64,000 nt of DNA from Escherichia coli (GTDB taxonomy: Bacteria; Pseudomonadota; Gammaproteobacteria; Enterobacterales; Enterobacteriaceae): the NCBI RefSeq assembly GCF_013122565.1, contig NZ_CP053258.1. The stretch is one strand, 5' to 3'. The notes under the pieces were generated by a model. The model searched no databases. It had not been told where the DNA came from and saw only the letters and a list, made by a program, of their open reading frames with translations. Positions 926-52,997 of the stretch are shown here, in pieces; position 1 is the stretch's first letter; every line of letters begins with the position of its first letter. Position numbers and translations under genes: made by a program.

Positions 926-955
926 AAAAAAGCACCTGAAAAGGTGCTTTTTTAC
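926..955 (-). terminator. Rho-independent terminator downstream of cysK
   Basis: Hairpin agcacct/aggtgct flanked by A and T runs just past the cysK stop. Confidence 0.6.
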
Positions 956-975
956 GCATTTTTAACAAGCTGGCA

Positions 976-1947
976 TTACTGTTGCAATTCTTTCTCAGTG
1001 AAGAGATCGGCAAACAATGCGGTGCTTAAATAACGCTCACCCGATGATGGTAGAATAACCACAACATTCTTGTTGGTAAAGCTTTCATCTTCTTGTAGTT
1101 TCAACGCCGCAGCAACAGCTGCTCCAGAAGAGATACCTGCAAGAATACCTTCTTCTTCCATTAGACGACGGGCGGTAGAAATGGCTTCTTCATTGGTGAT
1201 GCCAATGACTTTATCGACCAGCTTGAGATCGAGGTTAGCCGGGATAAAACCAGCGCCAATACCCTGAATTTTATGCGGGCCAGGTTTAATCTCTTCACCT
1301 GCCAGCGCCTGGGCGATAACTGGAGAATCGGTTGGCTCAACGGCGACAGAGATAAGATCGGTCTTGCCTTTAGTGCCTTTAATGTAGCGGCTAACGCCAG
1401 TCAGCGTACCGCCAGTCCCAACGCCAGCAATAAATACATCAACCTGACCGTCGGTATCTTCCCAGATCTCCGGACCGGTGGTTTTTTCGTGAATTTCAGG
1501 GTTTGCCGGATTGCTGAATTGTTGCAGCAGCAGGTATTTATCTGGATTGCTGGCGACAATTTCTTCTGCTTTTTGGATTGCGCCTTTCATGCCTTTAGCA
1601 CCTTCGGTCAGCACCAGGTTTGCACCTAACGCTTTCAGCAGCTTGCGGCGTTCAATACTCATGGTTTCTGGCATGGTCAGGGTAAGTTTGTAACCGCGAG
1701 CGGCAGCGACATAGGCCAGTGCAATCCCGGTATTACCGCTGGTTGGTTCAACCAGTTCAACGCCTGGTTTAAGCACGCCGCGCTTTTCGGCATCCCAAAT
1801 CATGTTGGCACCGATACGGCACTTAACGCTGAAGCTGGGGTTACGAGATTCCACCTTCGCCAGAATGCGTCCGTTACCGATGCGATTCAGGCGAACCAGC
1901 GGCGTGTGACCGATAGTCAGCGAGTTATCTTCAAAAATCTTACTCAT
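976..1947 (-). CDS. cysK: Cysteine synthase A (O-acetylserine sulfhydrylase A)
   Basis: 323-aa [47 protein letters not shown]..., PLP-dependent fold. Confidence 0.97.
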
Positions 1948-2131
1948 GGCCTGTCCTTAACTGTATGAAATTGGGATACAACAGGTAGCATACCCGCTCA
2001 GAGAATATGCGGAAGTAAGGATTTAGCATATCTATATGCAGAAGGGAAATAATGACATGCAAGATGGAATAAGGGGCGGCATAAGCAACCCCTGTTTCAC
2101 ACAAGCGGTTTACAAAATAACCGGTAGATTG

Positions 2132-2893
2132 TTACCGCCACATCGCGTGTTTATCGCGATAGCAATCGACCCACATCGCCGTCGCGCCACAAACGGCAAC
2201 GGGCATGATGAACAGATTAAGCAGAGGGATCATCGTAAACAGGCTGGTTAAAGCACCAAACTGCATATTGGTGATTTTGCGTGTGCGCAGGGCGGTGCGC
2301 ATCTCTTTAAACGGCACTTTGTGGTTATCGAAGGGGTAATCGCAATACTGGATGGCTAACATCCAGGCGCTAAACAGGAACCACAGTACCGGCGCGACGG
2401 TTTGCCCAATACCAGGGATGAAGTAAAGAATTAGCAATACAATTGCGCGCGGCAGATACCAGGCAAATTTTTGCCATTCGCGTTTCATGATTCGCGGCAC
2501 ATCTTTCATGATACCGAAAATCCCGGTATCTGGCGGTGTAGCGCCAGTCAGTCTTGCTTCCAGTTGTTCAGCCAATAAACCGTTAAACGGAGCGGCAATC
2601 CAGTTAGCAATCGTTGAGAAGAAATAGCCAAACACTAACAGCACAGAGATGACAGCCAGAGGCCACAACAGATAGCTCAGCCATTGTAACCAGTCCGGAA
2701 CATAACTCATGAGAGTCGGGATCCAGACATCGAGTTGCGTAAAGAGCCACCAGAATGCGCCCCCCATCAACAAAATATTGACCAGCAGCGGTAAAATAAC
2801 GAAACGCCGAATCCCTGGTTGCGAGACGAGCTTCCAGCCTTGCGCAAAATAGTAAAAACCGCTGCGTGGGGCAGATGTGAATGATGAAACCAT
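2132..2893 (-). CDS. cysZ: Sulfate transporter CysZ
   Basis: 253-aa membrane ORF immediately upstream of cysK on the same strand. Confidence 0.93.
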
Positions 2894-3122
2894 AATCAGG
2901 ATGAGCTCCTTTTGACCAATCCCAGGAAAATTCTGCGTATTTTACCGGGTAATTGCGCAATGGACAGTTAGGATATGTTCGAAAAAACAGCAAAAAGCAC
3001 GATTTCATCTATCTTTGTGCTGTGAAAGTTAATAGTGCACTTGCACTTGAGGTAATCGGCAAATACTCTTAGTGAGTAAATGTTTGCCGTGGTGGCAAGG
3101 TGTTAGAACAACAGAGAATATA

Positions 3123-39081: not shown

Positions 39082-39099
39082 TTCCTACAATTGTAAGAC
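39082..39099 (+). promoter_or_regulatory. Candidate EvgA box upstream of yfdX
   Basis: TTCCTACA-AT-TGTAAGAC fits the 18-bp EvgA inverted-repeat consensus TTCPyTACA-N2-TGTAPuGAA. Confidence 0.5.
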
Positions 39100-39234
39100 T
39101 AAAATACTTCTTGCGATAATAACTACAACTGTAAGACAATCCTTTCAAAATGACCGTTGCTCTCTGATTTCTCATTTCATGCTCACCCAATATGATGGCG
39201 GCGTTTTCTAAAACTGTTAAAGAATGAGGTAAGT

Positions 39235-40112: not shown

Positions 40113-40130
40113 TTCTTACAGTTGTAAGAA
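40113..40130 (+). promoter_or_regulatory. Candidate EvgA box upstream of frc
   Basis: TTCTTACA-GT-TGTAAGAA, near-perfect 18-bp inverted repeat matching the EvgA consensus. Confidence 0.55.
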
Positions 40131-40380
40131 TAACATCACAAATGTCGCGGCTCTCTCTGATTACCGCGAACCAATATTTATCATATTCTTCTTTTCGTCC
40201 TCACTACTTACCATGCAGAAAGGAATTGGAAGTAGCGATGAAATGATTTTCAGTACTTGATACAGGAATTTAAAAATATCGAGTGCAGCTACGACGATAT
40301 TTTGCGGATTATTTATAGAGGCGTTATGTCTTAAATAAACGCTAAATTAACACATATTTAATTAACTAATAGGTATTGCT

Positions 40381-45629: not shown

Positions 45630-45670
45630 AAATAGCTCCCACATTTGAACATTGTGGGAGCCGCTATTTA
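45630..45670. terminator. Bidirectional terminator between convergent yfdE and evgS
   Basis: aaatagctcccaca...tgtgggagccgctattt extended inverted repeat. Confidence 0.55.
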
Positions 45671-48600
45671 GTCTTTTTGTTGACAGAAAACAGAAATCTC
45701 CTGGTCCAGCTCTGCAATGTGTTCTTTTACAGAGTTCAGCAACTGAAGAATTTCAGGCTTACTGTCATCTGAAACAGGTGTTATTTCTAACTGATGGCTA
45801 ATATTAATCAACTTTTGCAAATTCAGGATGTTAGCCGCACCGTGGATGCGATGAATACACTGATGGAAAGTTCTGTTATCGCCAGCTTCTAGTGCATGAA
45901 ACGCAGCGGGTAGATCTTTATGCGTTTCATGCTGGAAAGTCATGAGAATCTCCTGCATCAGTTGTAGATCGTTCGCCGTATTATTTTTCAGGGCTTCGAT
46001 ATCAAGGTGGCGATACTGAGGTGCAATATGCGCAACCTGGTGTAACTGACTTAAATGTGTTTTCAGTACATCCAGGGTCAACGGTTTGAACAAACATAAG
46101 TTCATGCCGCAATTTAACCCTTTTTCACGTTCGTTAGCCTGTGCGTTGGCAGTAAGCCCCCAGATGGGTAAGGAAGAATTTTGCTCACGGAGTTTGCGAG
46201 TCAACTCAAAACCATCCATATTCGGCATATTAACGTCAGTAATAAGCAGATCATAATGTTGCATACTGACTTTGTGTAGCGCTTGCACACCATCAGTGGC
46301 TTCATCAACATCATATCCTAATAGATTTAGCTGGCGTTTGAGTAATAGCCTGTTGGTTGGATGATCATCCGCGATTAATATGCTCAACTTTTCAGGCAGT
46401 GTGATGGGTTGTTCTGCCTTTGCCTCGACAGTCGCCACTTGTTGGATAATTTCTACCGGGATTGTGATCGTAAATGTTGTTCCTATGCCTGGATGACTTT
46501 CTAATGACAAATCGCCCTGCATGTTTTTAATTAATTCTTTGCAGATCATTAAGCCTAAACCAGAACCTGTTTGCTGACGACCTGCACTTGTTTGGCTATA
46601 ACGTTTAAACAGTTGTTGTTGTTCTTCCTGTGATAATCCACTTCCAGAATCCATAATCGTCATTTTGATTACAGCGTGGTTGTCATCAATGTGAACCAGG
46701 GAGGTCGTAATTTTTACTGCCCCCTCGGTGGTAAATTTGAGAGCATTGCTCAGTAAATTAGATAAGACCTGCTTAAACGCCTGAGGGTCGATCTTAACCA
46801 GGTAATGTTCAGGAAACGTACTGCTGCAACTTAATGCGATCGATTTGCTTGCAGCAATCGCACCGAAAGAGTGACAAGTGTTCTGGACTAAAGTAGGGAT
46901 ATCGACCCATTGTGGTTGAAGTTGATAGTTACCCGATTCAATTTTGTCGACATCAAGGATTTCACCAATTAAGCCGAGGAGTGATTGTCCGGTGGCGTAG
47001 GCAAGTGAAATCGCCTCCACCCGTTGCTCCTTGCTAAGACCAGAACCCGACAGAAGTTCCAGGAAGCCCATAATGGAGCTTATTGGTGTTCTTATTTCGT
47101 GACTCATTGTTGCCAGAAACTGGCTTTTTGCGACAGTTGCATTGATCGCTTTATTTCTCTCTACTTCGAGTGCATGAATTAAATCACGCGTCTCGGTAAT
47201 ATCTTGCCAACCACAAATATAAACAGCATGATCGCTGGCTGGCAGATTGCATAATGTATGCCAGTGATTAATGCATCTTTTCTCGATGCCATTATCAATT
47301 TCAAATACCTGTGTGTATATTGTTCGATTTTCTTTCGTTTCTGCTGTGACTTCATGCGCATTAGAAAAAACATCTTTAAAGGGGGAGTCACTGTTTTCTA
47401 ATGGTAACATTGCATTTTTGTAGTAATCCGCAGTGAAATAATGTTCAAAAGCACTATTATGACTAATGACATTACCTTGCCAGTTTACAACATAAGTTGG
47501 ATTCGGTAAGGAATCCGAGAGTGCTTTCCGGAATGATATTTGGTTTTCTAAATCACCCTGAATGACTTTACGACGACGAACTGAGCGTAACAGGTAGAAT
47601 CCCCATAAAAGGCTACTGCCAACTAATAAAACGGATAATGTCGTAACAATATAAAATTGCTCGCTATAGAGGTCCCATGTGTCAATGGTCACATTGGGCA
47701 TTTTAATCCATTTTTCCGTCAGGCGCAGAACTTCGCTTGGGGGAATTGCATTCAGTGCTTTATTAATAATATCCTTAAGTTCTGGTTCTCCACGAGGAAA
47801 AGCGAACGAAAGCGATGCATTCGGAACGCCAGGAATAAGAAAATGATAAAGCTCATTAGGATAGTAATGGTCGATCATATAACGCGAATTTAGCTGTGTC
47901 GCGACCAGAGCATCAAGTTCACCTTCCTTAACCTTGTGAAATGCAGCGCTGGCATTATCGACTTGTATCCACTCAACCTCCGGATACATCTCTTTTAATT
48001 GCGAATGCAGCTCATAATAATATGGAATGGCAACTTTCATTCCTTTTTTTAATGTTTGTTCACTGTCAGGCGCTTTTTGCATGACAAAAACGTATGGTGT
48101 TGTTATGAAAGCTTCTGCAAATGAAACATTATTTTCTCGATCTTCACTATAAATAGCGCCAGGTATTATATCCCATCCACCGGGGCTAAGCTGTGTTCCG
48201 GCATGGATATTGTGTGAAACGGTGATCGGAGAAAAATTTAAACCTGTTTGCAAGGTAATAATATTAAGAATATCCCCCATAACGCCCCGAACCGAGCCAT
48301 TTTCATCCGTCATAGAATAGGGAGGAGAGTAAGGATTTTCCAGCACCTTTAAATCGGGATGTTGTTTAATCCACTGTTTTTCATGTTCAGTGAGTTCTAA
48401 TGGTTTGTTCAGAAAGGCCAGGTTTCCTGTATCAAGCCAATTTTGTGATACTTCATAGCGAACTTCATTTGTTAAAGCATCAACAAATCTATTGAGTACT
48501 TCATTAAGAATGACAGATTCTTTTCTGGTCAAGAAAAAATTATATTGACGCGGCGAGTTATAATATTTCACTACATTTAAGGAGTGAGTGAAATAGCGGG

Positions 48601-49261
48601 AAATCATACTGCTGGTAATGATGTTACTACCAATAAAGTAATCATTCTGTCCGGCTGATACGGATGCTAATGCCTGATATAAATTTGTAAAAGAGATAAT
48701 TGTTGCTTTTGGAAATGATTGATGAATTACCTCGTCTGGGGGGTAATTTGCTACCCGAGCAATATTTACTGGTTTTGGTGAGGTAAGCGGTCGCATTGAG
48801 TCGTGAAGGGTGGTTACCAGCGCCGGAAAGGTAATTATCAATGGTTTGGTTGCAGCAATGTCATTATTAAGAGGCGGCGAAGTAACTAAATGTGATAACA
48901 CTATATCGACTTCACCTTCTGTAAGCGCGTCCATTGCTTTTTGATGATCTGCGTATTCCCGGAGTGTTAATTTGATATTTAACGCTCTTTTTAAAAGATT
49001 TAAATAATCAGCATTAATACCACGAACCTGTTGCTGCGAATCGGTATGCAACAACGTAGCCGTTTGGGACTTGTGTACTGCAATCACAAGATTTTTTTTG
49101 CTCGCTAACCAACGTAATTCCTTGTTGCTCAGACGTACTGGATCAAGTGTGACACGGTTGTTACTACTGATGCCACGATATTCGATGTAATCTTCGTCTG
49201 CGAAACTTATGGTCGACCAAAGACTACAACAGAGAAGAAAAAAATAGGGTAAAAACTTCAT
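45668..49261 (-). CDS. evgS: Hybrid sensor histidine kinase EvgS (tandem periplasmic binding domains, PAS, HisKA, receiver, HPt)
   Basis: 1197-aa ORF with signal peptide, H-box SHEIRTPISSIMGFLELL, receiver ILIADDHPTNRLL and C-terminal HPt. Confidence 0.96.
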   Translation of the reverse strand: MKFLPYFFLLCCSLWSTISFADEDYIEYRGISSNNRVTLDPVRLSNKELRWLASKKNLVIAVHKSQTATLLHTDSQQQVRGINADYLNLLKRALNIKLTLREYADHQKAMDALTEGEVDIVLSHLVTSPPLNNDIAATKPLIITFPALVTTLHDSMRPLTSPKPVNIARVANYPPDEVIHQSFPKATIISFTNLYQALASVSAGQNDYFIGSNIITSSMISRYFTHSLNVVKYYNSPRQYNFFLTRKESVILNEVLNRFVDALTNEVRYEVSQNWLDTGNLAFLNKPLELTEHEKQWIKQHPDLKVLENPYSPPYSMTDENGSVRGVMGDILNIITLQTGLNFSPITVSHNIHAGTQLSPGGWDIIPGAIYSEDRENNVSFAEAFITTPYVFVMQKAPDSEQTLKKGMKVAIPYYYELHSQLKEMYPEVEWIQVDNASAAFHKVKEGELDALVATQLNSRYMIDHYYPNELYHFLIPGVPNASLSFAFPRGEPELKDIINKALNAIPPSEVLRLTEKWIKMPNVTIDTWDLYSEQFYIVTTLSVLLVGSSLLWGFYLLRSVRRRKVIQGDLENQISFRKALSDSLPNPTYVVNWQGNVISHNSAFEHYFTADYYKNAMLPLENSDSPFKDVFSNAHEVTAETKENRTIYTQVFEIDNGIEKRCINHWHTLCNLPASDHAVYICGWQDITETRDLIHALEVERNKAINATVAKSQFLATMSHEIRTPISSIMGFLELLSGSGLSKEQRVEAISLAYATGQSLLGLIGEILDVDKIESGNYQLQPQWVDIPTLVQNTCHSFGAIAASKSIALSCSSTFPEHYLVKIDPQAFKQVLSNLLSNALKFTTEGAVKITTSLVHIDDNHAVIKMTIMDSGSGLSQEEQQQLFKRYSQTSAGRQQTGSGLGLMICKELIKNMQGDLSLESHPGIGTTFTITIPVEIIQQVATVEAKAEQPITLPEKLSILIADDHPTNRLLLKRQLNLLGYDVDEATDGVQALHKVSMQHYDLLITDVNMPNMDGFELTRKLREQNSSLPIWGLTANAQANEREKGLNCGMNLCLFKPLTLDVLKTHLSQLHQVAHIAPQYRHLDIEALKNNTANDLQLMQEILMTFQHETHKDLPAAFHALEAGDNRTFHQCIHRIHGAANILNLQKLINISHQLEITPVSDDSKPEILQLLNSVKEHIAELDQEISVFCQQKD

Positions 49262-49265
49262 GTGA

Positions 49266-49880
49266 TTAGCCGATTTTGTTACGTTGCGCGAATGTGTAAA
49301 GATCCATCAGTGATTTACATTCTAATTTTTCCATCAGGCGACTTTTATACGTGCTGACAGTTTTGTTGCTGATGAACATTTTTTCCGCAATGTCATTATT
49401 ATCCTTGCCATCAAGAATATACCTCATGACACTAATTTCTTGTTTCGATAAGGAGTCGAGTTTTTGCTGGTCGGACGTTAAACTTCCAACAAACCGGTTG
49501 AGAGAGAAGGGGAAATAGCAGTAGCCATTTTTTGCAGCTTCAATAGCCGCAATGATATTGTTCATGCCTTCTTTTTTACTCACGAATCCATTAGCGCCAG
49601 CATCAGCACAATGTTTCCCGTAAAAATGGTCATTTTTAGCGGAGACAATAATAATAATTCCGCTATATTGGCGCTTCCTCAGCGTTTCTAACACCTGGAT
49701 ACCGTTAACTCCGGGGATATCGACATCAATGATGACGATATCAGGCTTAAGTGTTTCCACCCGCTGAACGGCGCTTCCCCCTTCAGTCAACTCCGCTAAG
49801 ATTTCAATATCGTTTTTGATCAATAGATTACGAATTGCTGCGATAGCAAGAGGATGGTCATCAATAATTATTGCGTTCAT
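49266..49880 (-). CDS. evgA: Response regulator EvgA (NarL/FixJ family)
   Basis: 204-aa ORF MNAIIIDDHPLAIAAIRNLL... with LuxR-type HTH. Confidence 0.96.
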   Translation of the reverse strand: MNAIIIDDHPLAIAAIRNLLIKNDIEILAELTEGGSAVQRVETLKPDIVIIDVDIPGVNGIQVLETLRKRQYSGIIIIVSAKNDHFYGKHCADAGANGFVSKKEGMNNIIAAIEAAKNGYCYFPFSLNRFVGSLTSDQQKLDSLSKQEISVMRYILDGKDNNDIAEKMFISNKTVSTYKSRLMEKLECKSLMDLYTFAQRNKIG

Positions 49881-50104
49881 AGATTATTCCCTTTGCAATG
49901 AAGCATCTCCCTTCTCCCTGTAGTAATACAGACATAAGGCGTCATCTCATTTTCTCAATAAAAATAAGAAAATCCGAGCTTCCTTTAAGATAATTCGAAA
50001 AGTATACCATATAAATAGTCGGCATAAATGAAATGTCAACAATAAAATTAGGGATTATACCGATGATTTATAGTTTCAAGTTAGCACTATAAGTCTTCTC
50101 ACTA

Positions 50105-50122
50105 ATCCTACAGGCGTAAGAA
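50105..50122 (+). promoter_or_regulatory. Candidate EvgA box in the evgA-emrK divergent region
   Basis: ATCCTACA-GG-CGTAAGAA, imperfect match to TTCPyTACA-N2-TGTAPuGAA, about 175 bp upstream of emrK. Confidence 0.4.
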
Positions 50123-50295
50123 TTGTATTGCAAAGGCCACGGTTTAGTCCTCTGTTGTTTTTTTTGCACCTCATTTAAATTAGGCCTCCAACGTTCCTGG
50201 GATAATGTGCAACACATGCACTGTGTTTGATATGAAGAATGAATATTCTTTTCATTCAATTCATAAATTTCATCTACGCGAAATGAGAGATAATA

Positions 50296-51459
50296 GTGGA
50301 ACAGATTAATTCAAATAAAAAACATTCTAACAGAAGAAAATACTTTTCTTTATTGGCGATAGTTTTATTTATTGCGTTTTCAGGTGCTTATGCCTATTGG
50401 TCAATGGAATTAGAAGACATGATTAGTACAGATGACGCCTATGTCACGGGGAATGCAGATCCAATTTCTGCGCAAGTCTCAGGTAGTGTCACTGTCGTTA
50501 ATCATAAAGATACGAACTACGTTCGACAGGGTGACATTTTAGTTTCACTGGATAAAACTGATGCCACTATCGCACTCAATAAAGCTAAAAATAATCTGGC
50601 AAATATTGTTCGGCAAACGAATAAACTGTACTTACAGGATAAACAATACAGTGCCGAAGTCGCTTCAGCACGTATTCAGTATCAACAATCTTTAGAAGAT
50701 TATAACCGTCGTGTGCCTTTAGCGAAGCAGGGGGTTATTTCAAAAGAAACGCTGGAGCATACCAAAGATACGTTAATAAGTAGCAAAGCGGCATTGAATG
50801 CCGCTATCCAGGCTTATAAAGCGAATAAAGCTTTAGTAATGAACACACCATTAAACCGTCAGCCACAAGTCGTTGAAGCGGCGGATGCAACCAAAGAAGC
50901 CTGGTTGGCGCTTAAACGTACGGATATTAAGAGTCCGGTTACCGGCTATATTGCCCAGAGAAGTGTTCAGGTCGGCGAAACAGTGAGTCCCGGACAATCG
51001 TTAATGGCTGTCGTACCGGCACGTCAAATGTGGGTTAATGCCAACTTTAAAGAAACACAACTCACGGATGTACGGATTGGTCAATCGGTCAATATTATCA
51101 GCGATCTTTATGGTGAGAATGTTGTGTTTCATGGTCGGGTGACAGGGATCAATATGGGAACCGGTAATGCGTTCTCCTTATTACCTGCACAAAATGCGAC
51201 AGGGAACTGGATCAAAATCGTTCAGCGTGTACCGGTTGAAGTTTCTCTTGATCCAAAAGAACTCATGGAACACCCCTTGCGCATTGGTTTATCGATGACT
51301 GCAACTATTGATACGAAGAACGAAGACATTGCTGAGATGCCTGAGCTGGCTTCAACCGTGACGTCCATGCCGGCTTATACCAGTAAGGCTTTAGTTATCG
51401 ATACCAGTCCGATAGAAAAAGAAATTAGCAACATTATTTCGCATAATGGACAACTTTAA
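50296..51459 (+). CDS. emrK: Multidrug efflux membrane fusion protein (EmrA paralogue)
   Basis: 387-aa ORF with single N-terminal TM and HlyD-type coiled-coil / biotinyl-like regions. Confidence 0.93.
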   Translation: MEQINSNKKHSNRRKYFSLLAIVLFIAFSGAYAYWSMELEDMISTDDAYVTGNADPISAQVSGSVTVVNHKDTNYVRQGDILVSLDKTDATIALNKAKNNLANIVRQTNKLYLQDKQYSAEVASARIQYQQSLEDYNRRVPLAKQGVISKETLEHTKDTLISSKAALNAAIQAYKANKALVMNTPLNRQPQVVEAADATKEAWLALKRTDIKSPVTGYIAQRSVQVGETVSPGQSLMAVVPARQMWVNANFKETQLTDVRIGQSVNIISDLYGENVVFHGRVTGINMGTGNAFSLLPAQNATGNWIKIVQRVPVEVSLDPKELMEHPLRIGLSMTATIDTKNEDIAEMPELASTVTSMPAYTSKALVIDTSPIEKEISNIISHNGQL

Positions 51460-52997
51460 TGGCAATTACTAAATCAACTCCGGCACCATTAACCGGTGGG
51501 ACGTTATGGTGCGTCACTATTGCATTATCATTAGCGACGTTTATGCAAATGTTGGATTCCACTATTTCTAACGTCGCAATACCGACAATATCTGGCTTTC
51601 TGGGAGCATCAACAGACGAAGGCACCTGGGTTATCACCTCGTTTGGCGTAGCAAATGCTATTGCGATCCCTGTTACCGGCAGGCTGGCACAAAGAATAGG
51701 CGAATTAAGGTTATTTTTACTTTCAGTCACTTTTTTTTCGCTGTCTTCATTAATGTGTAGTTTATCGACCAATCTTGATGTGCTGATATTTTTTAGAGTC
51801 GTTCAGGGATTAATGGCGGGGCCGTTAATTCCACTGTCACAGAGTTTATTATTAAGGAATTATCCACCAGAAAAAAGAACATTTGCTCTGGCATTATGGT
51901 CTATGACCGTGATTATCGCTCCGATATGTGGGCCGATATTGGGCGGTTATATTTGTGATAACTTTAGCTGGGGTTGGATATTTTTAATCAATGTCCCTAT
52001 GGGGATTATCGTCCTGACATTATGCTTAACCTTACTTAAAGGAAGAGAAACTGAGACTTCACCGGTCAAAATGAATCTACCAGGACTGACCCTGTTAGTG
52101 CTCGGTGTTGGTGGCTTGCAAATTATGCTTGATAAAGGGCGGGATCTGGATTGGTTCAACTCGAGTACAATAATAATATTAACAGTAGTATCAGTTATTT
52201 CTCTGATCTCTTTAGTCATTTGGGAGTCGACCTCAGAGAACCCGATTCTTGACCTCAGTTTGTTTAAGTCCCGTAACTTCACCATTGGTATTGTGAGTAT
52301 CACCTGCGCGTATTTATTTTACTCTGGAGCGATAGTCCTTATGCCGCAGTTACTCCAGGAAACGATGGGGTATAATGCGATATGGGCCGGGCTTGCTTAT
52401 GCGCCCATCGGCATCATGCCACTATTAATTTCACCTTTGATAGGACGTTATGGCAACAAAATTGACATGCGGGTGTTGGTGACATTTAGTTTTTTGATGT
52501 ATGCGGTTTGCTATTACTGGCGTTCTGTGACATTTATGCCAACGATTGATTTTACAGGTATCATTTTGCCGCAGTTTTTTCAGGGATTCGCCGTTGCCTG
52601 TTTCTTTTTACCCTTAACAACAATTTCGTTTTCAGGCTTGCCAGATAATAAATTTGCCAATGCCTCGAGTATGAGTAATTTTTTTCGTACCTTGTCAGGA
52701 TCAGTTGGTACGTCGTTGACAATGACGCTGTGGGGACGACGCGAATCGTTACACCATAGTCAGTTAACAGCAACCATCGATCAATTTAACCCGGTGTTTA
52801 ATTCATCGTCACAAATTATGGATAAATACTATGGTTCGCTTTCAGGAGTTCTTAATGAAATTAATAATGAAATAACCCAGCAGTCACTTTCTATTTCTGC
52901 AAATGAGATTTTCCGTATGGCGGCTATTGCTTTTATCTTACTTACGGTTTTGGTTTGGTTTGCGAAACCGCCGTTTACAGCGAAAGGCGTTGGGTGA
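51459..52997 (+). CDS. emrY: MFS multidrug efflux pump (EmrB paralogue, 14-TM DHA2)
   Basis: 512-aa polytopic ORF whose start overlaps the emrK stop. Confidence 0.93.
   Translation: MAITKSTPAPLTGGTLWCVTIALSLATFMQMLDSTISNVAIPTISGFLGASTDEGTWVITSFGVANAIAIPVTGRLAQRIGELRLFLLSVTFFSLSSLMCSLSTNLDVLIFFRVVQGLMAGPLIPLSQSLLLRNYPPEKRTFALALWSMTVIIAPICGPILGGYICDNFSWGWIFLINVPMGIIVLTLCLTLLKGRETETSPVKMNLPGLTLLVLGVGGLQIMLDKGRDLDWFNSSTIIILTVVSVISLISLVIWESTSENPILDLSLFKSRNFTIGIVSITCAYLFYSGAIVLMPQLLQETMGYNAIWAGLAYAPIGIMPLLISPLIGRYGNKIDMRVLVTFSFLMYAVCYYWRSVTFMPTIDFTGIILPQFFQGFAVACFFLPLTTISFSGLPDNKFANASSMSNFFRTLSGSVGTSLTMTLWGRRESLHHSQLTATIDQFNPVFNSSSQIMDKYYGSLSGVLNEINNEITQQSLSISANEIFRMAAIAFILLTVLVWFAKPPFTAKGVG

Follow-up and report, generated by a model that had tools for sequence, protein, structure and literature searches.

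The two-component system EvgAS of Escherichia coli has its closest paralogous system in BvgAS, whose response regulator BvgA is of the NarL/FixJ type and, at the fha and ptx promoters of Bordetella, occupies a high-affinity inverted repeat well upstream of the -35 region. NarL recognises pairs of heptamers in a 7-2-7 arrangement (half-site TACYYMT), often present in multiple copies, and can also repress. The binding site of EvgA, the EvgA box, is reportedly the inverted repeat TTCYTACA-N2-TGTARGAA, said to have been described by Masuda & Church in 2003 and by Itou et al. in 2009. Boxes of this form, 18 bp long, are given for ydeP, safA-ydeO, yegR, yfdX and frc (PMC4283999 and PMC3720670); PMC3720670 describes inverted repeats ahead of yfdX and yfdW as sites for EvgA, and all genes known as directly regulated are stated to have an EvgA binding site (PMC4283999). 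According to PMC9496106 and PMC8174306, both citing Kato 2000, the promoter region of emrKY is bound by EvgA and is under its direct control. In Shigella, an emrK-gfp fusion fails to be activated once evgA is deleted (PMC6393483), and PemrK-yfp has served as an EvgA-dependent reporter, PemrK being strictly dependent on EvgA (PMC5706723). Since both EvgA binding and the use of PemrK as a reporter are on record, the site is already known.

We have analysed the emrK box in a stretch of E. coli DNA of 64,000 nucleotides (contig NZ_CP053258.1 of assembly GCF_013122565.1), referred to below as the window. With the other EvgA boxes (ydeP, safA, yegR, yfdX and frc) it has the 8-2-8 architecture in common, and its gene-proximal half-site reads GTAAGAA as theirs do; the outer bases of the distal half-site are degenerate, as in ydeP (AGCC...) and safA (TGCC...). 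It differs from all other boxes examined in the C at position 11 of the E. coli sequence, which breaks the TACA/TGTA core, and in lying in a divergent spacer that is shared with the regulator's own operon. With NarL 7-2-7 sites it shares the inverted repeat, the central spacer of 2 bp and a response-regulator dimer with a helix-turn-helix of the GerE/LuxR type, whereas the half-site sequence differs, and multiple copies and repression are features of NarL. The BvgA sites at fha and ptx resemble it in having an inverted repeat far upstream, and may resemble it in a weaker half-site-like element nearer the polymerase; the half-sites of the two regulators differ, and a spreading of EvgA from the box toward the -35 region is something that we infer only from the RTCYT element described below.

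The EvgA box in the evgA-emrK spacer

Gene identities at the locus were assigned by megablast against the complete E. coli genomes and the gene order was confirmed by the K-12 annotation (Table 1). The evg/emr locus is found in 5398 of the 5426 complete genomes, among which the highest identity to window positions 49200-50400 is only 98.6-98.8%. The window is therefore not K-12 itself and belongs to a lineage that this collection does not contain exactly, possibly Shigella or an E. coli clade yet to be sampled. The box, ATCCTACAGGCGTAAGAA, can be read directly from the sequence and sits in a 415-bp spacer between evgA on the minus strand and emrK on the plus strand, 174 bp upstream of the emrK start codon and thus upstream of a gene whose dependence on EvgA is taken from the literature. 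Its emrK-proximal half-site is CGTAAGAA and its distal half-site ATCCTACA. Compared with TTCYTACANNTGTARGAA there are two mismatches, A for T at position 1 and C for T at position 11; the preliminary description had rightly placed an EvgA box with few mismatches between the divergent evgAS and emrKY operons, and its count of two or three can be fixed at two.

Only 5 of the 8 arm positions are self-complementary, and for this reason an inverted-repeat finder did not report the emrK box, while it did report other weak palindromes of no evident meaning. A reading of the box as a hairpin or terminator was rejected on its weak pairing and the lack of a T-run, and an Rfam search of positions 49700-50500 at E <= 1 returned no RNA family. 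On the other side of the spacer, translation of evgA in K-12 is coupled to that of the leader peptide evgL, and the same open reading frame is present unchanged in the window.

Table 1 Coordinates of features at the evgA-emrK locus (window positions)
Feature	Position	Strand	Remarks
evgS	45668-49261	-	1197-aa ORF; sensor kinase; evgA and evgS together span 45668..49880
evgA	49266-49880	-	204-aa ORF; regulator binding the box
evgL leader peptide ORF	49877..49906	-	9 codons; K-12 annotation; identical to K-12; stop codon overlaps the evgA start codon
evgA promoters (documented)	49994..50039	-	leaders from two CsrA studies, mapped via the K-12 alignment
EvgA box	50105..50122	.	18-bp imperfect inverted repeat ATCCTACA-GG-CGTAAGAA
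Conserved flank TTGTATTGCAAA	50123..50134	+	emrK side of the box; 12 bp; with the proximal half-site forms the conservation peak
GTCCT (RTCYT element)	50147..50151	+	offset of exactly 25 nt from the box; would occupy about -42 to -38 relative to the predicted start
Predicted -10 of the EvgA-dependent emrK promoter, TAAATT	50176..50181	+	spacing as in ydeP and safA
emrK	50296-51459	+	387-aa ORF; K-12 annotation, megablast
emrY	51459-52997	+	512-aa ORF; with emrK the activated operon, 50296..52997

The match was set against dinucleotide shuffles, 2000 of the window and 20000 of the 415-bp spacer alone. Matches with at most two mismatches number 3 in the 64 kb, where the shuffles have a mean of 0.045, and the probability of at least one such match in the spacer is 0.0008 (20000 shuffles). 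Allowing three mismatches gives 4 matches in the whole window against 0.74 expected, the other three being those that precede yfdX (39082 and 39120) and frc (40113). A symmetrised matrix trained on the ydeP, safA, yfdX and frc boxes, with the emrK box left out, assigns the latter 18.9 bits and rank 3 of 63,983 positions; the only two positions that outscore it, at frc and yfdX, are both training sites, and the top site outside the evg and yfd promoters reaches 7.0 bits. By mismatches, matrix score and spacer probability alike, the 18-bp repeat fits TTCYTACA-N2-TGTARGAA. At yfdX there are two tandem boxes (39082-39099 and 39120-39137, 38 bp apart, with 1 and 3 mismatches), and the frc box (40113-40130) is a perfect consensus. 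Both promoters also carry GCTCTCT(CT)GATT further downstream (39159-39169 and 40150-40162), at differing distances from their boxes.

Conservation of the box

The K-12 box is identical to that of the window in a pairwise alignment. Among ten diverse E. coli sequences 37 positions of the 415-bp spacer vary, and the sole variable position in the box, 50113, belongs to the central pair of bases, which is unconstrained. A genome scan with EvgA gave two more distant, informative carriers of the emrK-evgA pair. L002 is a divergent genome labelled E. coli whose spacer is 87% identical to that of the window; L003 (NZ_CACVAF010000001.1) is a 590-kb contig labelled Yersinia vastinensis, with an EvgA 94% and a spacer 64% identical. 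The L002 box, TTCCTACAGGTGTAAGAA, is a perfect consensus and the L003 box, TGCCTACACGTGTAAGAA, has 1 mismatch, so that substitutions at constrained positions are mostly toward the consensus. This is the pattern that would be expected of a selected operator.

In the four-way alignment of window, K-12, L002 and L003, 16 of 18 columns are invariant in windows over 50108-50131. Within the central spacer, conservation is highest over the proximal half-site together with the 12-bp flank on its emrK side, and a comparable level is reached only in the evgA leader and in the region of the emrK start. Conservation of the box thus stands above the neutral background of the spacer on three counts, the peak in L003, the perfect box in L002 and the polymorphism within E. 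coli, and, judged from these alignments, selection on the emrK box is clearly purifying, and this extends to a distant carrier of the locus. The evgA leader, over its whole length, ranks with the best-conserved stretches of the spacer, in L003 as well.

None of the evgA homologues that are 66-71% identical (Hafnia, Klebsiella, Enterobacter and Buttiauxella) has a box with at most three mismatches. Palindromes with 4 mismatches, GTCCTACGTATGTAGGCG and TTCCTACGTCTGTAGTCC, occur upstream of homologues 66-68% identical, at 2065-2082 in Hafnia alvei and 2413-2430 in an Enterobacter MAG, with the spacing CCTAC-N4-GTAG of the emrK box; Hafnia alvei has in addition several half-site-like elements, TGTAAG or TGCCTACA, at 2090-2365. 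On the L003 contig the emrK-evgA pair lies at 949-3115, and a 29-bp deletion in its spacer spans the evgA sigmaS promoter and the region of the -114 start; the divergent spacer on a contig with a Yersinia label suggests horizontal transfer or mislabelling. A 398-bp contig from an assembly labelled Rhizobium cauense (NZ_JAEUAT010000078.1) codes for residues 1-114 of an EvgA that is 100% identical to the window protein over this length, most likely a contamination of that assembly.

With shuffles, matrix rank and conservation in hand, a match that arose by chance and has no function is effectively refuted. What could be said for it, that there are two mismatches and that one of them falls inside the TACA/TGTA core, has to be held against a spacer probability of ~0.0008, a rank by an independent matrix behind two training sites only, and a conservation peak at the box where the spacer is only 64% identical to that of L003; we regard the probability of this reading as negligible. 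RcsB boxes have half-sites TAAGAA and TTCCTA. Their resemblance to EvgA half-sites lends something to the idea that the 18-mer serves another regulator of the LuxR/NarL type (RcsB, GadE or NarL) or an unrelated factor, its likeness to EvgA sites being incidental, but the TTCYTACA-N2-TGTARGAA arrangement and spacing are those of the ydeP, safA, yfdX, frc and yegR boxes, and expression of emrK is evgA-dependent in the literature, which makes such a site very improbable. An RcsB box in particular was rejected on half-site orientation, as the repeat does not fit the everted RcsB arrangement. We therefore take the 18-mer to be the EvgA operator of the emrKY promoter, with a probability of about 0.9; the call of the box rests on its sequence, binding and activation on papers that cite the original work, and the promoter geometry on analogy. 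The C at position 11, in breaking the core, may give it an affinity below that of perfect boxes.

Promoters on the two sides of the box

Six promoters were aligned on their EvgA boxes and oriented toward the activated gene. In ydeP the leader start at -178 falls 66 nt after the box, which puts the box centre at -74.5, and an extended -10 element, TGT-TAATTT, lies 53-58 nt after the box. In safA, TGT-TATATT is found at the same offset; yegR has TATTAT/TATATT at +54-62, emrK has TAAATT at +54-59, and the L003 counterpart has TAGAAT at +53-58. By analogy this suggests an emrK start at ~50188, with a leader of ~108 nt and the box centre near -75. As a -10 element TAAATT is a weak hexamer, and a generic sigma70 promoter scan did not pick it up; that scan gave fewer hits than the shuffles and one weak candidate, in the wrong direction. 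An extended -10-like sequence, TGGGATAAT, at 50198-50206 is an alternative to the predicted -10 and is followed, upstream of the emrK start codon, by a short hairpin with a T-rich tail (50207-50231). This segment is kept in E. coli and L002 and is not found in L003.

A second element, RTCYT, is found exactly 25 nt gene-proximal of the box at emrK (in all three lineages: the window, L002 and L003) and at K-12 ydeP, safA and yegR. In each of these four promoters it occurs once within 80 nt, its background frequency being 0.00275 per position. yfdX and frc have no RTCYT at +25, with copies at other offsets, and on the evgA side of the emrK box it is absent at +25. The RTCYT at +25 and the -10-like hexamers at about +53-59 recur in emrK, ydeP, safA and yegR, and the position of the box relative to the core promoter may accordingly be the same in all four, the emrK start being a predicted one. 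RTCYT resembles the EvgA half-site TTCYTA and is four helical turns (42 bp) away, counted from where the box begins; GTCCT at emrK may be a promoter-proximal element of the EvgA half-site kind. That EvgA-activated promoters share a two-part operator, an 18-bp box at about -75 and RTCYT(A/C)T 25 nt downstream at about -42 to -38, is a tentative proposal on which we would place rather little weight. If it is true, the presence of the element on the emrK side only would explain how a palindromic site between divergent operons comes to activate in a single direction.

On the evgA side, two CsrA studies place the starts of the leader at -124 (sigma70) and -114 (sigmaS) from the ATG, which correspond through the K-12 alignment to 50004 and 49994 in the window. 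The sigma70 core reads TTGACA (50034-50039), N17 and ATTTAT (50011-50016) on the minus strand, and an extended -10, TGGTATACT, at 50001-50009 is paired with the sigmaS start. Relative to these starts the box is centred at -109.5 and -119.5, further upstream than activators usually act and outside the interval of about -40 to -95 where an operator acting on its own promoter would be sought. As judged from the literature only, evgAS appears not to be induced when EvgA is activated: earlier results of the Utsumi/Eguchi group are quoted to the effect that evgAS is not autoregulated (PMC8174306), acid has little effect on evgAS expression (PMC3177180), and in macrophages evgA is unchanged while emrK is induced (Pasqua et al., PMC6393483). 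Genomic SELEX with the RpoS holoenzyme gave a very strong peak for emrK/evgA; the peak is listed within emrK (type D, 2480972), beside evgA, and indicates a constitutive promoter. Only one compilation enters EvgA as an autoregulator with one site, at a weaker evidence grade, citing Tanabe 1998 and Eguchi 2003. Nearer the box, at 50054-50059 on the minus strand, there is a hexamer that reads TATAAT in the window and L002, TACAAT in K-12 and TATAGT in L003; from its sequence it could be a strain-variable extra promoter of evgA.

Two other geometries have to be weighed against these data. A centre near -41.5 is the typical class II position for activators of the NarL/FixJ type, and the emrK box would take it if it overlapped the -35 region of a promoter with TTTAGT (50143-50148) as its -10 and a start at ~50155. 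The distance from box to hexamer is 20 nt in every case (E. coli TTTAGT, L002 TTTAAT, L003 CATTGT), and TTGTAT in the conserved flank next to the box resembles a -35. TTTAGT, however, is without the conserved A at position 2, and at the 20-nt offset ydeP has CAGAGT and safA ACCAGT; in these two the start and the extended -10 come ~30 nt further downstream, and the shared AGTCYT is therefore not a -10. By this comparison the class II arrangement seems less likely than a box centre near -75, and we consider it an improbable one. The preliminary description also read the site as consistent with autoregulation. In that case the palindrome would work in both directions, activating evgAS (positive autoregulation) as well as emrKY, and the evgAS promoter might use the box-proximal -10 at 50054-50059. 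The site is indeed a palindrome within a divergent spacer, a -10-like hexamer in one of its three forms is kept on the evgA side at a distance of 46-51 nt, box-like palindromes occur upstream of the Hafnia and Enterobacter evgA homologues too, and there is the weakly graded compilation entry. Against this, the documented evgA starts leave the box at -109.5 and -119.5, the later literature has evgAS non-autoregulated, little affected by acid and unchanged in macrophages that induce emrK, the RpoS-holoenzyme SELEX peak points to a constitutive promoter, and the evgA side has no RTCYT at +25 while its -10-like hexamer is ~8 bp out of the register of ydeP, safA and emrK. Autoregulation through this box is thus doubtful, one compilation with weak evidence standing on its side, and the box probably contributes little to evgAS transcription. 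The call of an EvgA box and the claim of emrKY activation are supported by the statistics, by phylogenetic footprinting, and by the literature on EvgA binding and PemrK dependence.

Discussion

From its geometry and by analogy with ydeP and safA, the emrK box would be wired toward emrK. In the mechanism that we propose, EvgS senses mild acid and EvgA, a response regulator of the NarL/FixJ type, is phosphorylated; a dimer of phosphorylated EvgA would occupy the 8-2-8 inverted repeat centred at about -75 and activate rightward transcription of emrK-emrY from ~50188. GTCCT may be a point of contact with further EvgA or with the polymerase, and the upstream dimer would then nucleate a second EvgA contact beside the polymerase, as BvgA does. 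Transcription of evgAS would depend on its sigma70 and sigmaS promoters, which are constitutive and lie over 100 bp from the box.

The EvgA box upstream of emrKY is real, conserved and already textbook-level knowledge. Confirming it brings no new biology, as the interaction has been known for a long time and PemrK is in routine use as a reporter for EvgA. The additions made here are modest: the box is under clear purifying selection, autoregulation of evgAS through it is poorly supported, and the emrK-side element and the -10 spacing predict a start for emrK. The shared RTCYT and its spacing are putatively new, and only mildly so. What the emrK box does for the cell is to connect the acid sensor system EvgS/EvgA with EmrKY, an efflux pump that has a part in resistance to bile and drugs and in the survival of Shigella in macrophages.
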